NCBI GenBank assembly: GCA_038858525.1 | Contig: JAWCFL010000011.1 | Span: 25,284-57,283, forward strand | Source of the DNA: Candidatus Jordarchaeales archaeon | GTDB taxonomy: Archaea > Asgardarchaeota > Jordiarchaeia > Jordiarchaeales > Freyrarchaeaceae | Direction: 5' to 3' | DNA length: 32,000 nt | In this document: one piece after another, positions 19,646 through 24,327 of the stretch | How positions within the stretch are numbered: position 1 is the first letter of the stretch | How the letters are laid out: each line of letters opens with the position of its first letter | Translations under genes and position numbers: made by a program | Notes under the pieces: generated by a model | The model's database searches: none | Seen by the model: only the letters and a program-made list of their open reading frames with translations | What the model was told of the DNA's origin: nothing

Positions 19646-19848
19646 TTGAATTGCATTTTTTATTTTTGTTCAGTGCATGAAGTGCGACAAGCACCCCTTC
19701 GTTTCTACTGTAACAGGTAAACTTATAAATCACTAAGCTAAACTTGAGCTTTTTATACAAAAAACTTATATCTTCTAAGTCCCAAGTATTTTGGGGGAGA
19801 GTTTTAATTTTAAAAGTTTAATTAATAAACTTAAGAGAGTTTTACTTT

Positions 19849-19876
19849 TTCCAGTTGAAACAGTGGGGTGGGTGGG
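19849..19876 (+). promoter_or_regulatory. Origin recognition box (ORB-A): dyad plus G-string
   Basis: TTCCAGTTGAAACAGTGGGGTGGGTGGG, compared with the archaeal ORB pattern TTCCAGTGGAAAC...GGGG. Confidence 0.75.
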
Positions 19877-19890
19877 TTTCCTTCTTTTAT

Positions 19891-19910
19891 TTTGGAACAC
19901 ATGTTCTAAA
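19891..19910. repeat. Second copy of the 20-bp palindrome (inverted, 19/20)
   Basis: TTTGGAACACATGTTCTAAA. Its reverse complement differs from the 19162 copy at one base. It overlaps the stop codon (19906-19908) of the 19906 gene. Confidence 0.6.
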
Positions 19911-20193
19911 TGTTTTCTTCCTCTACAACTACAAAAACTCGGCACTTAACAATATCCTTGTATTTCTTGAAGAAAGCATTGAAGACTTCTGCGTGTTCAT
20001 CTTGAACTAGTATTGCGCTATCTCCTGCCCTGTCGCAACCATAGAAGTCCACAAGGCCTAATTTTTGCCCCTTTAATGTTTTTCCTTCCTTGTTTTTCCA
20101 TTTGTAGGCGTATCCGAAGAGTTCCTTGAAGAATTTCACCCTGCGCGGGTTACTCGAATGTTCCGCCTTTACGTCGTAGACGTATATTCTCAA
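19906..20193 (-). CDS. Hypothetical small protein, possible Cas2/VapD-like ferredoxin fold
   Basis: 95 aa. TTG start 6 nt after GGAGGG. MRIYVYDV...NPRRVKFFKELFGY...SAILVQDEHAEVFNAFFKKY..VKCRVFVVV suggests a beta-alpha-beta-beta-alpha-beta pattern with an Asp at the end of strand 1. The assignment is tentative. Confidence 0.45.
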   Translation of the reverse strand: MRIYVYDVKAEHSSNPRRVKFFKELFGYAYKWKNKEGKTLKGQKLGLVDFYGCDRAGDSAILVQDEHAEVFNAFFKKYKDIVKCRVFVVVEEENI

Positions 20194-20270
20194 AGTTTTC
20201 CCTCCATCAATACGTTGCAGCCATTCGTCTTTGAAGACTTGTATTTTCGTTGTCTTTTTGTGGTCAATAG

Positions 20271-20639
20271 CTTAACATGTTAACACAGTGTTAACATAGC
20301 CGTTTTGAGTTGTTAACACGTTGTTTTTGCTATGAATAATGCAAATTATCTTAGTTAAAAATTGACCCCTTTATTTCAACTGCAACATTTTTTTCGATAT
20401 TTTTCTCTTTCCTTTTCGTGTTAACACGGTTTGTTAACCTTTATTTAGAAAAAACAATGGAAAATTGTTTTTTTGAAGATTTACCGCTTTTTATTTCAAT
20501 TTTTCTTGTTAATACTTTTTAAAAATTCTCTTTGTCAAAAGATGGCGTATTTTTTCCTTTTTTTGTTCTTTTCGTGTTCGTCACGTTAACAAATTTACAC
20601 ATTATTTCTCTTTGTTTTTAACGCGTTGTTTTGTTAACG
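20271..20639. repeat. Array of TGTTAACA palindromes (GTTAAC core)
   Basis: Exact TGTTAACA at 20278, 20289, 20311 and 20419 (the last within the perfect 12-mer CGTGTTAACACG, 20417-20428). 7/8 copies at 20432, 20507, 20584 and 20632. Confidence 0.7.
20366..20385 (-). promoter_or_regulatory. Origin recognition box (inverted copy of the ORB-A sub-type)
   Basis: The minus strand reads TTGCAGTTGAAATAAAGGGG, which is 16/20 identical to ORB-A including the GGGG string. Confidence 0.6.
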
Positions 20640-20972
20640 TATTGCGTGTTTTAGGTGAACCATTTCCCCCTTTAGAAAATAACGTTTTTTTGCTGGCTTC
20701 AAAGTTTTTATGGACTCTTCTTTTAGCTTATCGTAGAAAGCGGCATATGTTCTGTTTTTCAGAGGGATTGAGCTGCGGGTTAATGTTCAAGTGTAAAGTG
20801 TTTGGTGTTGGCTCCTGAAAGCCCCTGAGGTTGTATTTTTGTGGGTGGAATGCATTAGTCTTGCAGTTTGATTATTCTGCTTTTTATGTGTTGCTGGTTG
20901 GAGTTGTTAAGGGTGTTTTTCGGGTGTAATAGATAGACATATATATTTACGCGTGTAAGTTTAACTTACCTC
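20386..20972. other. AT-rich, strongly T-skewed non-coding core (candidate duplex unwinding region)
   Basis: Dense T-runs on the plus strand and no credible ORF. It is flanked by the inverted ORB at 20366-20385 and ORB-B at 20973-21002. Confidence 0.55.
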
Positions 20973-21002
20973 GTTTCCAGTGGAAGGTGTGCTGGTTGGG
21001 GG
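20973..21002 (+). promoter_or_regulatory. Origin recognition box (ORB-B)
   Basis: GTTTCCAGTGGAAG-GTGTGCTGGTT-GGGGG: dyad plus G-string. Confidence 0.75.
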
Positions 21003-21466
21003 CGAAGCGCTACAAGATCGAGATAGTTGATGCCGAGCGCAACGTGAAGGCTACTTTGACTATTGAGGGTGATGTTTCCCCCCAGCTGGCGGCATCTCTT
21101 GTGGAGGAGCTTTCCGAGAAACTGTCTGAGGGCGGAGTGGCGGAGGAGGCACCTGCTGGGTTTGAGGCTTCCGAGGTTGACGCCGAGCTCCCCGACACTG
21201 AAAGTCTCTCGATGAAGGATAAAATTGAACTTGTACTGCTAAAGTATTTCCAGTATGGGTGGTTTACTTCTGGTGATGTTCATGAGCAGTTTACTCGGGT
21301 TTTTGGTGAGACCTCTCTAAGCGTGGTTTCAACATACTTGGCGAGGCTGCGTAGTGAGGGGCTCTTGGAGCGTAAGGGAACGAAAAAGCAGTATTATTAC
21401 CGGCTTAAGGAAAGTGGCCGGCTCAGGGCTTCTAGGCTTAGCGAGCTTCTTCAGCTTCTTCCGTGA
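20987..21466 (+). CDS. Hypothetical winged-helix DNA-binding protein with acidic N-terminal half, embedded in oriC
   Basis: 159 aa. The C-terminal FTSGDVHEQFTRVFGETSLSVVSTYLARLRSEGLLERKGTKKQYYYRL is a wHTH pattern. Start is GTG 20987 or TTG 20996, both inside an ORB whose GGAAGGTG doubles as the SD. Confidence 0.6.
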   Translation: MCWLGAKRYKIEIVDAERNVKATLTIEGDVSPQLAASLVEELSEKLSEGGVAEEAPAGFEASEVDAELPDTESLSMKDKIELVLLKYFQYGWFTSGDVHEQFTRVFGETSLSVVSTYLARLRSEGLLERKGTKKQYYYRLKESGRLRASRLSELLQLLP

Positions 21467-21515: not shown

Positions 21516-22826
21516 TTGCCGGAAGTTAAGCATTATTCACCTTTGTTTCCAGTGGAAGTAGGAAAAGTGGTGGTTTGTTTGGGTGAACGTTCTCTTGAGG
21601 CGCTTTTTGAAAGGTTTCTCTCAACCAAGATCTTCAAGAATCGTGACGTGTTGAGTCATACTTATGTTCCTGACGAGTTACCTCACCGTGACGAGCAAAT
21701 AGAGAAGGTTGGGTTAATTCTCGCCTCAGCTCTTAAGGGCGGCACTCCTTCGAACGTTTTCATTTATGGAAAGACGGGTACAGGTAAGACTGCTGTCGTA
21801 CGCTTCGTTCTTAAGCACCTTGTTGCTAAGTGTCACGAGCTGAATGTGCCTGCTCCCTTACCCGCTTACCTTAACTGTAGAATTGTAAACACTAATTATC
21901 GTGTTCTGGCTCGGCTTTGCTCCTACTTAGGTGTCGAGGTTCCCTTTACGGGTCTGCCTACCGATGAGGTTTACAGTAGGTTTAGGGACGTGCTTGATAG
22001 CAGGGACGTGTTGATGATAATCGTGCTCGACGAGGTTGAACGGTTAGTTGAGCGGGACGGTAGTAACGTCCTCTACGACCTAACTAGGATGAATCACACT
22101 GTTCTTAAGCGGGCGCGCGTCAGCATAATAGGCATCACGAATGACTTAACGTTCAAGGATAACCTTGATCCTAGAGTGCTGAGTAGCTTAGGGGAAGAAG
22201 AGCTAGTTTTCCCGCCTTACACTGCCGCTGAGCTCAGGGACATTCTTTGGCAGAGGGCTCAGCTTGCCTTCAGAGAGGGCGCTCTTGAAGGTCCAGGAGT
22301 CATCAATCTTTGCGCAGCTATAGCCGCTAAGGAGCACGGGGACGCCCGTCGCGCCCTAGACTTGCTTAGAGTCGCTGGCGAGATAGCTGAGCGGGAGGGC
22401 GCAGAAAAGGTTTCCGAAGAGCATGTGAGAGCCGCTCAACACGTCATCGAGCGAGATCACCTGGTTGAGGCACTGAGAACTCTCCCTATGCATTCTAAGC
22501 TTGTACTTTACACTATTTTTGAGTTGACTAAGCAGGGAAGGGGTAAAGCTAGGACCGGGGACATATACAACTACTACTTGAACGTTTGCAGGCGTCTACA
22601 TGTTGAGCCGTTAACTCAGAGGCGGGTTAGTAGCCTTATAAATGAGCTTGACATGCTGGGTGTCGTTGCGGCTCATCTTAAAAGCAGAGGACGCCATGGG
22701 CTCTCGAAAGAAGTGAAACTCAACGTTTCAGTAAATCAAGTCAAACAAGTCTTAGAGGAGGATTCATTCATAAAGAAGCTTTCATCCAGTGACTCGTCTC
22801 CTCTCTTTGAGGCTAGTCCCCAGTAA
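21516..22826 (+). CDS. cdc6: Orc1/Cdc6 replication initiator
   Basis: IFKNRDVLSHTYVPDELPHRDEQIEKV, Walker A IYGKTGTGKTA, Walker B IIVLDEVE, GDARRALDLLRVAGEIAE and a C-terminal wH (LTQRRVSSLINELDMLGVV). The true start is probably GTG 21567/21570 or TTG 21579 (after GGTGG), downstream of the ORB at 21545-21558. Confidence 0.93.
   Translation: MPEVKHYSPLFPVEVGKVVVCLGERSLEALFERFLSTKIFKNRDVLSHTYVPDELPHRDEQIEKVGLILASALKGGTPSNVFIYGKTGTGKTAVVRFVLKHLVAKCHELNVPAPLPAYLNCRIVNTNYRVLARLCSYLGVEVPFTGLPTDEVYSRFRDVLDSRDVLMIIVLDEVERLVERDGSNVLYDLTRMNHTVLKRARVSIIGITNDLTFKDNLDPRVLSSLGEEELVFPPYTAAELRDILWQRAQLAFREGALEGPGVINLCAAIAAKEHGDARRALDLLRVAGEIAEREGAEKVSEEHVRAAQHVIERDHLVEALRTLPMHSKLVLYTIFELTKQGRGKARTGDIYNYYLNVCRRLHVEPLTQRRVSSLINELDMLGVVAAHLKSRGRHGLSKEVKLNVSVNQVKQVLEEDSFIKKLSSSDSSPLFEASPQ
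21545..21558 (+). promoter_or_regulatory. mini-ORB (ORB-D) overlapping the cdc6 5' region
   Basis: GTTTCCAGTGGAAG, identical to the ORB-B dyad. It lies about 30 nt downstream of a TATA-like ATATATTT (21509-21516) and upstream of the likely cdc6 start. Confidence 0.7.
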
Positions 22827-24327
22827 AGTCCAGCTGAGCCACCCAGAAGTCCTTCAAATTAACGATGTACGGTTTTCCGGGTGTTGGTGTTAAGCCCATG
22901 GCTTTCTGATAATCTGTTTGGTCCTGAAATGTCCCTGAGTTTATCACGGTCACACCGCGATAATTTTCTTGCCCATTCACGTGAAGGTGGCCACAATGAA
23001 AAATATCTGGGACCTTCTCGATAACTAAGAGGTCCATTGGTTCAGGGGACAATGGCGTTGAACCATAGACTGGCGCTAAATGTCTTCCTCTAAGAAGCTC
23101 TATCATTGCTTTTTCCGGGTAGTGTGAGTCTATTGATAGAGCTGTCATCACGTCATTCAGCGGGTCTCCATGAAAGCATAACACCTCAACGCCGTGTATT
23201 CTAAAGTATGCTGGGTCTCCAAGCATTTCGACTCCTATTTCGTAAAGTGGTTCACTGTAATCTTTAGGTATGGCTGGCTGGGGTAATGCTTGCCTAGTTG
23301 CATCGTGCCCGCCCGGTATAGCTATAGTCTTAACGTAGTCTGGTACGTTTTCAAGATGCCTCGCTGCTATTTCGTATTGCGCGTAGAGTTCCTCGACGAC
23401 GAGCTCCTTCTCTTGATTCGGGTAGACTCCGACTCCATCCACTATGTCTCCTCCAATTACCAAGTATTTAACTTGTTTTGCCAAGCTTCTGCTTTTCTCG
23501 TCCCCTCTTTTGCCCTGAAGCCATTCTAGGAACCTTGTAAATGGTTTCTCCATGAATTTCTTGCTGCCGAAATGCGTGTCTGAAATGAAGACCGCCATTA
23601 TGGGTTCATCAGCCCTCCTAGGTTTGTGATCGAATGGTATGTCGGGCCAAATGATGTTATCAGCCACAACGAACGCTCCATTACTCCTACCTTCCACGCA
23701 GACTACTTGGTCCAGCATAAGGTGTCGCGCCTTGTCTGTTAAGTTGCTCGGGATTAGAACGCTGACCACACCGTCAAGATCCTCAAGTTCTATGACCATG
23801 GAGCCACTTCGAGCCCTCGAAATTTCCCTGACTAATCCTATTAACTTGACTTCCTCGGCTCTGCCTACTTCACATGTCCTACATATCCCTTTTATGTCCC
23901 CCCTTTTCAGAAAGAGGTTGCTGAGACGCATATATCTATCCTTGAAGTAATTAACAAAGTCGTCTAGGGACCCACTGGTTCCTATCATCTTTGTTGGATC
24001 CATCACCACTTCAAAATCTTCATCTACTTCCCTAGCGGTTAGGGCCGGCTTAGGCTTCAAGCCTGGAGGAATTATACTTTGTGCTTCCTCGCTTTTAGGA
24101 GCTTTTACATTAGTTGCTTCTCGGGGCTCCTCTTTTTCAATTAGCTTCCTAATATCTTCCTCTGTTAGGACAAGTGTTCCCTCTGTGGCCTTAACCTTAC
24201 TTATGACTAAGGAAGCTAAGCTAGGCTCAAGTGCCAATATGACGTCTAGCGCTCTGGGAGTAACTTGCAGTCCGGCTTCAAGCAACTCCTTAACTGTTCT
24301 CTTTGCAACCTGCGATGTCCCTATCAA
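22813..24327 (-). CDS. polB: DNA polymerase D (Pol II) small subunit DP1
   Basis: 504 aa. N-terminal helical domain, OB region, then a calcineurin-like phosphoesterase (FISDTHFGS, VIGGDIVDGVGVYPNQ, IPGGHDA, FHCGHLH). Convergent with cdc6, with a 14-nt overlap. Confidence 0.9.
   Translation of the reverse strand: MIGTSQVAKRTVKELLEAGLQVTPRALDVILALEPSLASLVISKVKATEGTLVLTEEDIRKLIEKEEPREATNVKAPKSEEAQSIIPPGLKPKPALTAREVDEDFEVVMDPTKMIGTSGSLDDFVNYFKDRYMRLSNLFLKRGDIKGICRTCEVGRAEEVKLIGLVREISRARSGSMVIELEDLDGVVSVLIPSNLTDKARHLMLDQVVCVEGRSNGAFVVADNIIWPDIPFDHKPRRADEPIMAVFISDTHFGSKKFMEKPFTRFLEWLQGKRGDEKSRSLAKQVKYLVIGGDIVDGVGVYPNQEKELVVEELYAQYEIAARHLENVPDYVKTIAIPGGHDATRQALPQPAIPKDYSEPLYEIGVEMLGDPAYFRIHGVEVLCFHGDPLNDVMTALSIDSHYPEKAMIELLRGRHLAPVYGSTPLSPEPMDLLVIEKVPDIFHCGHLHVNGQENYRGVTVINSGTFQDQTDYQKAMGLTPTPGKPYIVNLKDFWVAQLDFTGD

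Follow-up and report, generated by a model that had tools for sequence, protein, structure and literature searches.

Archaeal replication origins are usually described in terms of origin recognition boxes (ORBs), an unwinding element and the initiator Orc1. The orc1-linked origin of a Candidatus Jordarchaeales archaeon (Asgardarchaeota; assembly GCA_038858525.1, contig JAWCFL010000011.1, positions 25,284 to 57,283) additionally carries a dense cluster of the hexamer GTTAAC, which raises the question of what reads it. Throughout, the window denotes the whole 32,000-nucleotide stretch, and positions are counted from its first letter. Here, comparisons within the family and across phyla point to a small winged-helix protein encoded beside orc1 as the probable reader of an asymmetric box that underlies the hexamer.

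A single GTTAAC cluster in the genome

Seven exact GTTAAC hexamers start at 20279, 20290, 20312, 20420, 20433, 20585 and 20633, within 369 bp. Four of the seven lie in the 8-bp palindrome TGTTAACA (starts at 20278, 20289, 20311 and 20419), one of which is extended to the 12-mer palindrome CGTGTTAACACG (20417-20428), a single occurrence in the genome. Two near-copies, CTTAAC and GTTAAT, start at 20271 and 20508, and at every exact site a T stands 5′ of GTTAAC on at least one strand. TGTTAA, counted on both strands, occurs 30 times in the window, with half of these (15/30) within 20272-20910. An initial annotation, made from the sequence letters, had listed the seven hexamers, the four 8-mers, the 12-mer and the two near-copies, all of which were re-found. 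It had also held that the array is neither a CRISPR array nor a tandem repeat, in agreement with spacings of 11, 22, 108, 13, 75, 77 and 48 bp that lend no support to a regular repeat–spacer period, and that the sites are not ORBs; indeed, the boxes have neither a TCCA-N-TGGAAA-type dyad nor a G-string, and the ORBs are separate elements at 19693, 19849 and 20365.

The host assembly (2.09 Mb in 63 contigs, 47.5% GC) contains 704 GTTAAC (0.34 per kb) and 21 TGTTAACA, and from the genome rate 0.12 GTTAAC would be expected in 369 bp (Poisson P ~8e-11). The window as a whole holds 16, as against 7.5 ± 2.6 in shuffles. A genome-wide scan found at most three GTTAAC in any 400-bp stretch elsewhere, and among 846 low-GC control windows (at most 38% GC, 400 bp), more than two were found solely in those overlapping the array region. 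In 20,000 first-order Markov simulations of the array region, the mean was 0.24 and the maximum four. The shuffles, the genome-wide scan and the low-GC control rule out chance or AT-richness as the cause of the cluster, which is real and the sole one of its kind in the genome; the enrichment check proposed in the initial annotation found no comparable density in other AT-rich spacers. Plasmid or viral iterons (17-22 bp direct repeats beside a Rep gene) were also considered and rejected, as the boxes are 6-8 bp long and unevenly spaced and their neighbours are orc1 and the gene for the PolD small subunit. Rfam and tRNA searches of the window for RNA genes gave no match.

The conserved unit is an asymmetric box

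Orthologous regions were compared in three genomes of the same genus and one of another genus in the family. GTTAAC clusters were found at the matching place in all four, with five to eight GTTAAC in the three complete regions, and no such cluster was seen in five other families of the order and phylum. The array is thus kept at the orthologous origins of the family, where the initial annotation had suggested looking for loss of the sites. Alignment columns were identical across the four genomes at 54% of box positions and 27% of neighbouring positions (Fisher P 3e-4), and at 70% of positions in the ORB at 20365-20387, which lies between boxes 3 and 4. Five boxes occupy fixed positions in all four genomes. 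The aligned fixed sites include a doublet with a spacing of 11 bp (8 bp in the other genus), approximately 85-97 nt upstream of a divergent gene for a 95-aa protein, and a doublet with an unvarying 13-bp spacing that is followed by two single boxes at steps of ~76 bp.

Box 1 (20278-20285) and box 2 (20289-20296), both TGTTAACA and without strand, form the first of these doublets and together make up a 9-3-9 inverted repeat, ATGTTAACA-CAG-TGTTAACAT. Box 1 is GTTAAC in all four family genomes, precedes the TATA-like block of the 95-aa gene by ~30-50 bp, and is abutted by the near-copy box TTAACA (20272-20277), read as TGTTAAG on the minus strand. Box 3, again TGTTAACA (20311-20318), is lineage-specific, being GTTAAT in one relative and absent from two. 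The fixed 13-bp doublet is opened by box 4 (TGTTAACA, 20419-20426), which lies within the 12-mer palindrome and is GTTAAC in all four genomes, and is completed by box 5 (TGTTAAC, plus strand, 20432-20438). In all four genomes, box 6 (TGTTAAT, plus strand, 20507-20513) follows box 5 at a distance of ~76 bp, reading TGTTAAT in one relative and TGTTAAC in two, and box 7 (GTTAACA, 20585-20591; TGTTAAC on the minus strand) stands a further ~76 bp away. The position of box 8 (TGTTAAC, plus strand, 20632-20638) is not conserved, and neither is a lone TGTTAA on the plus strand (20905-20910), which precedes the conserved TATA-like block (20929-20946) of the winged-helix gene by ~25 bp.

The sister family has TGTTAAT and TGTGAAT, all on one strand, at equivalent places with respect to the ORB and a conserved TGGAAAA block, and its TGTGAAT aligns with box 5. 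By these alignments, what is conserved is an asymmetric box, TGTTAA(C), and not the palindrome; in this genome's family, TGTTAAC often completes TGTTAACA by happenstance. The proposal in the initial annotation that a dimeric factor occupies each palindrome is not supported, as relatives carry the asymmetric TGTTAAT and TGTGAA.

Boxes, winged-helix gene and orc1 in two phyla

An unbiased scan of 185,579 genomes, one per prokaryote species, for two TGTTAACA and one GTTAAC, each at most 31 bp from the next, returned at least 80 loci. Among the matches listed were 11 from Nitrososphaerota (ammonia-oxidising archaea), and in eight of these 11 the array stands between orc1 (~40% identical) and a homologue of the winged-helix gene at 20987-21466 (E down to 6e-10). 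A homologue of the 95-aa protein was not detected at those ammonia-oxidiser loci. Some 25 Nitrosopumilales-type loci carry three to seven GTTAAC within 300 bp upstream of the winged-helix homologue, and in ammonia oxidisers three GTTAAC are found 25-90 bp before its start codon. ORBs are interleaved with the boxes in this upstream DNA, and a CTTAACAT-GTTAAC arrangement resembling 20271-20284 lies between ORBs. The Asgard and ammonia-oxidiser origin neighbourhoods have just three proteins in common: Orc1, the winged-helix protein and the small subunit of PolD. Within Asgard, three further families show local enrichment of GTTAA/TTAAC upstream of the winged-helix homologue; one of these families has seven boxes that take up the whole interval from one ORB to a second, inverted one. 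Strong box enrichment was never seen at Asgard orc1 loci that have no winged-helix gene nearby.

The scan also returned many bacterial loci with tight TGTTAACA triplets, among them a Eubacteriales metagenome-assembled genome with up to 10 GTTAAC per 500 bp and one of Thermacetogeniaceae with nine. These are presumably unrelated operator or repeat systems.

The recognition helix covaries with the box

Loci were grouped by the residue that follows Leu-Ser at the start of the recognition helix of the winged-helix protein, and words were counted in the 450 bp upstream. Across the family, this DNA holds several boxes of 6-7 bp, TGTGAA in most lineages and TGTTAA(C) in some. For Val, Ile or Ala, the observed and expected counts of TGTTAA were 3.5 and 0.43 in Asgard (this genome's family, n = 4) and 8.9 and 0.61 in Thermoproteota (n = 29), with corresponding values for TGTGAA of 0.5 and 0.24, and 1.2 and 0.29. 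For Thr, TGTGAA was observed at 3.4 against 0.28 expected in Asgard (n = 23) and at 3.5 against 0.27 in Thermoproteota (n = 35), while TGTTAA stood at 1.9 against 0.64 and 0.9 against 0.52. When all 6-mers were counted openly, TGTGAA ranked first in the Thr group (at least three copies in 38 of 58 loci) and TGTTAA in the hydrophobic group (32 of 33 loci), and in gene bodies both words were at background. A hold-out set of 19 further Asgard loci contained 60 TGTGAA against 5.5 expected, and in it the Ala-Thr lineages carried TGTTAA. The rule that Ser-Thr goes with TGTGAA, and any other pair with TGTTAA, agreed with 70 of the 75 loci that have a clear box type. Since the independent switches are few (two to five), we regard this covariation, read from sequences, as strong circumstantial evidence that falls short of proof.

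An unnamed winged-helix family beside archaeal origins

The candidate reader is a 159-aa protein encoded on the plus strand at 20987-21466, with a GTG start at 20987 or a TTG start at 20996. Alignment revealed one architecture in both phyla, namely a beta-hairpin and a helix at the N terminus, a disordered acidic linker, and a winged helix at the C terminus. The recognition helix of this last domain has the near-invariant pattern L-S-x-x-S-T-Y-L-x-R and begins here with S112-V113. The AlphaFold2 model has a mean predicted local distance difference test score (pLDDT) of 73, and of ~90 in the C-terminal domain. The top Foldseek matches were PadR, MarR and ArsR structures (E 5e-4 to 4e-3; template modelling score, TM, by target 0.55-0.70, as single-domain hits), and the other fold matches included AspA (PDB 5k5q), Sso10a and F-93. 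The model thus predicts a C-terminal domain of the PadR/ArsR/MarR winged-helix type. The Pfam gathering score was not reached (best Penicillinase_R, 17.8 bits against a cut-off of 22.6); weak Pfam matches were found for five of 12 family members, and nearly all members have no Pfam domain. Searching the sequences of solved structures with a family profile gave nothing below E 0.1.

Homologues occur in 140 of 201 Asgard and 132 of 201 sampled Thermoproteota genomes, mostly as a single copy, and in Asgard the gene usually lies near the 95-aa gene or orc1. The database holds thousands of members, all named 'hypothetical', and the organisms named were Nitrosotalea/Nitrosopumilales in one search and Bathyarchaeia in the other. 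Sequence searches delineate a large, unnamed family positioned beside orc1/cdc6 and an ORB-type origin in Asgard and in Thermoproteota (ammonia oxidisers and Bathyarchaeia). Both this protein and the 95-aa protein are far more widespread than the GTTAAC array. A literature search for the haloarchaeal 'origin-associated proteins' (Oap) as possible relatives yielded merely OLE-RNA proteins and a vesicle GTPase.

A candidate reader of the boxes and its proposed mode of action

We consider it probable that the array serves as docking sites for the winged-helix protein. Direct readout by this protein most economically explains linkage, placement and covariation, and of the candidates named in the initial annotation, it is the best supported, by the cross-phylum linkage and the agreement between residue and box. 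We propose that a single winged-helix domain would read a single box, with box position 4 contacted by the residue pair that opens the recognition helix (Ser-Val here, Ser-Thr in the TGTGAA lineages). The N-terminal hairpin-helix domain would join subunits, and the flexible acidic linker could reach boxes at uneven spacing, from 8 to 16 bp within doublets. About ten boxes interleaved with the ORBs would in this way build up a coat of protein on the origin flank nearer to orc1, covering the promoter region of the divergent 95-aa gene or, in ammonia oxidisers, the promoter of the winged-helix protein itself. Such a coat might set the expression of the winged-helix and orc1 genes, modulate Orc1/MCM at the origin, or both. 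The analysis shows the array statistics, the conservation of the array, the linkage of boxes, gene and orc1 across phyla, the winged-helix fold and the agreement of residue with box; from these we infer binding, stoichiometry and any effect on transcription or replication.

Several observations weigh against this assignment. The boxes lie 350-710 bp upstream of the gene of the proposed reader, nearer to the 95-aa gene. Orc1 and the ORBs accompany the boxes too, so linkage alone cannot separate the winged-helix protein from Orc1. The residue state changes approximately five times on the family tree, and since merely two contrasts fall on well-supported branches, a phylogenetically corrected test has no power. 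TGTGAA was discovered on part of the loci in which it was first counted, a circularity mitigated by the 19-locus hold-out. The rule also has exceptions, as a Gln-Thr family carries TGTTAA-type boxes, and several lineages, including two Asgard families, are enriched for neither box. A 6-bp palindrome is too short for two helix-turn-helix domains at once, and because they cannot share it, the palindromy is accounted for merely in the sense that either orientation works. Finally, the proposed binding draws on sequence comparison and a structural model.

A broader reading may be put forward tentatively: the winged-helix family and its TGTKAA boxes could constitute an ancient second layer of origin recognition, common to Asgard and Thermoproteota, in which a dedicated origin-bound factor works with Orc1 on the main origin of the chromosome, perhaps by licensing, timing or sequestering it or by handing over MCM, and in which specificity has been retuned by single-residue changes. 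We consider this possibility less likely than not. The cross-phylum protein link and the covariation of residue and box are new in this analysis, and we found no paper on GTTAAC/TGTGAA boxes at archaeal origins in a search that did not reach Pelve et al. 2013 (Nitrosopumilus maritimus origin mapping).

Alternative readers

The alternative closest to the proposed docking array keeps the winged-helix protein as the reader and changes its purpose, the boxes being merely operators of a self-regulating transcription factor that would control its own gene, the 95-aa gene and perhaps orc1, with no direct role in replication. We judge this unlikely. In its favour, the PadR/ArsR/MarR fold class is typical of autoregulators, the three boxes 25-90 bp before the start codon in ammonia oxidisers stand where a promoter must be, and the divergent 95-aa gene has boxes 1-3 immediately before its TATA-like block. 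However, eight to 12 boxes spread over 300-400 bp among ORBs exceed the needs of a simple operator, the seven boxes of one Asgard family occupy the very space between inverted ORBs, and in both phyla the gene has stayed next to orc1 and the ORBs. Both the number of boxes and the placement of the gene may nevertheless be compatible with purely transcriptional control of the initiator.

The remaining alternatives, none of which accounts for the covariation of residue and box, assign the sites to other readers. That Orc1/Cdc6, or a second Orc1 paralogue encoded on contig 1, reads the boxes as a non-ORB type of site is very unlikely; the boxes stand among ORBs, orc1 is their other constant companion gene and a paralogue is available, but the boxes resemble neither the ORB dyad nor its G-string, Asgard orc1 loci with no winged-helix gene nearby show no box enrichment, and Orc1 gives no reason for the boxes to follow the recognition helix of another protein. 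It is highly improbable that GTTAAC (an HpaI-type site) is methylated by an orphan or restriction-linked methyltransferase that sequesters or times the origin; the initial annotation had named a methylation/restriction-type mark that distinguishes the origin among its candidates. A six-base palindrome clustered at an origin invites this idea, and DNA methyltransferases of the N6/N4 type are encoded in the genome, including a full-length enzyme on contig 28. Nevertheless, a Dam-like enzyme of the D12 class was not found in the genome, GTTAAC shows no marked avoidance or enrichment across the genome (observed/expected 0.85, in the middle range of the 64 palindromes), and a hexamer-specific enzyme has no need of the 5′ T present at all sites. 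The exact palindrome is, moreover, not conserved at orthologous sites, where relatives have the non-palindromic GTTAAT, TGTGAAT and TGTGAA, and the box type follows the winged-helix residue.

The other protein singled out in the initial annotation, the 95-aa product of the minus-strand gene at 19906-20193 (Shine–Dalgarno sequence GGAGGG, TTG start), could in principle bind the palindromes upstream of its own gene, since boxes 1-3 are 85-120 bp upstream of its start and the gene is conserved beside the origin in 66 of 201 Asgard genomes, where it is single-copy, usually 1-3 kb from the winged-helix gene and often near orc1. We find this scarcely credible, as the ammonia-oxidiser loci with the same boxes yielded no homologue, and most Asgard lineages that have the gene have no GTTAAC near it. 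An exhaustive profile search recovered ~10 full-length relatives, and the near relatives that are named are all Asgard. The protein has no Pfam family and an NCBIfam match at chance level. Its model (pLDDT 81) adopts a ferredoxin-like fold that matched no DNA-binding structure significantly; its structural matches are weak, of VapD/Cas2-like resemblance, the nearest being VapD (TM 0.47). The gene, which is transcribed away from boxes 1-3, is probably regulated from these boxes rather than encoding their reader. A search of the genome for a second reader among paralogues of the neighbouring ribbon-helix-helix (RHH) and helix-turn-helix (HTH) proteins found none.

Layout of the origin and neighbouring features

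DNA stability is lowest at 19716-19860, between two inverted ORBs on the minus (19693-19715) and plus (19849-19875) strands, and this segment is most likely the unwinding element. As the least stable DNA lies there, ~400 bp to the left of the array, the array occupies the orc1-proximal flank, around the third ORB, an Orc1 box with an ACCCC string on the minus strand. The suggestion in the initial annotation that the boxes act at the unwinding region holds only in part: the classical ORB–unwinding–ORB unit is elsewhere, whereas a second T-rich stretch of low stability (20440-20530) does lie inside the array. Directly to the right of the box 4/5 doublet stands a conserved, half mini-ORB-like block, CAATGGAAAA (20455-20466, plus strand), and a mini-ORB dyad (20974-20985, plus strand) overlaps the 5′ end of the winged-helix gene. 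Conserved AT-rich blocks were further noted that may represent TATA/TFB-recognition elements, CTTGTATTTTCG (minus-strand reading, 20237-20249) for the 95-aa gene and GTAATAGATA-ACATATATA (within 20925-20946) for the winged-helix gene.

Fifty base pairs downstream of the winged-helix gene lies the orc1/cdc6 initiator gene (21516-22826, plus strand; Cdc6_C, Cdc6_lid and AAA domains), whose 3′ end is overlapped by the convergent gene for the PolD small subunit (22813-24327, minus strand). A convergent orc1/polD small-subunit pair with overlapping 3′ ends is likewise found at five loci of ammonia-oxidising Thermoproteota. HypF is encoded farther to the left. The second Orc1/Cdc6 paralogue (contig 1, 32185-33324) is 30% identical to the origin-linked Orc1 and contains one in-frame TAA, which may reflect a broken gene, a split gene or a sequencing error.

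All four family genomes retain a palindrome of the GGAACACATGTTC type (19891-19910 here) in the interval from the ORB at 19849 to the stop codon of the 95-aa gene, and a similar palindrome, GAACATGTGTTC, occurs upstream of the homologous gene in the sister family. In Thorarchaeota, GAACACGTGTTC palindromes have been reported beside ORBs. A conserved ATPase/RHH/HTH module 2 kb away has GATATC arrays of its own. The GATATC doublets 17732/17745 and 18368/18381 are spaced by 13 bp, like the GTTAAC doublet 20420/20433; at three loci of the sister family, a GATATC doublet with the same spacing replaces the TGTTAACA doublet that precedes the 95-aa gene in this family. GATATC and GTTAAC differ at positions 2 and 5 only. 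In one same-genus assembly, the origin is divided between the ends of two contigs, inside the box array; AT-rich repeated boxes apparently break assemblies.

Significance and comparison with known systems

To our knowledge, ucm and UBP of Sulfolobales are the only accessory origin motif and protein pair characterised to date. The pair proposed here is a different one, a short box and a small origin-encoded winged-helix protein, in Asgard, ammonia oxidisers and Bathyarchaeia, lineages of great evolutionary and ecological weight for which no genetics is available. The proposal carries a built-in test, since one residue pair predicts whether TGTGAA or TGTTAA is found. If it is true, thousands of 'hypothetical proteins' would gain a name, a second signature would be available for predicting origins in both phyla, and a further participant in the control of initiation would become accessible. 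Should the second-layer reading also be true, the control of replication in archaea, including the lineage closest to eukaryotes, would prove to have a core component that has so far gone unrecognised.

In Escherichia coli, oriC contains a cluster of GATC sites that are subject to Dam methylation and are bound by SeqA. Both there and here a short palindrome is strongly over-represented at a chromosomal origin; here, however, the orthologous boxes are non-palindromic, and the sequences give no sign of methylation dependence. AspA, the centromere binder of the archaeal plasmid pNOB8 (PDB 5k5q), is likewise a small winged helix that could coat DNA from short sites, a similarity at the level of fold only; the boxes described here are confined to ~400-650 bp of origin DNA, and no ParA/ParB partner is linked to the winged-helix gene across lineages. 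Autoregulators of the PadR/ArsR/MarR type share the C-terminal fold and the placement of boxes, with predicted binding, upstream of their own gene. The present family differs from them in its additional N-terminal hairpin-helix domain and acidic linker, in having many short boxes rather than one dyad of 16-20 bp, in its fixed place beside orc1/oriC in two phyla and in a sequence that stays below the Pfam gathering score.

A winged-helix protein encoded beside an origin is also known from Sulfolobus, where the Cdt1-like initiator WhiP is encoded next to oriC3, on which it acts (PMC4010727). WhiP replaces Orc1 at an ORB-less origin, whereas the origin described here has both Orc1 and ORBs, and its small protein contains one winged helix only. 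The 50 structure hits listed included nothing Cdt1-like, and no direct search for WhiP homology was made. According to PMC4010727, marker-frequency mapping located the N. maritimus origin next to cdc6.

Of the systems described so far, the one most similar is ucm/UBP (Dhanaraju et al. 2025, PMC12141716), which likewise combines a short conserved non-ORB motif in an orc1-linked archaeal origin with a small non-initiator reader, the latter being proposed in our case. The ucm motif is a single 11-bp site per origin, inside the unwinding element, centred around AGATAACCATT by comparison of wild-type and mutant oligonucleotides (supplement of PMC12141716), and UBP is a beta-saddle nucleoid protein that binds as a monomer via beta-hairpins at more than 300 chromosomal sites (PMC12141716). 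The two systems differ in motif, copy number, protein fold and genomic distribution: AGATAACCATT is unrelated to TGTKAA, the eight to 12 boxes described here are confined to the origin, and their candidate reader is a modelled winged helix, not a beta-saddle, encoded at the origin itself.

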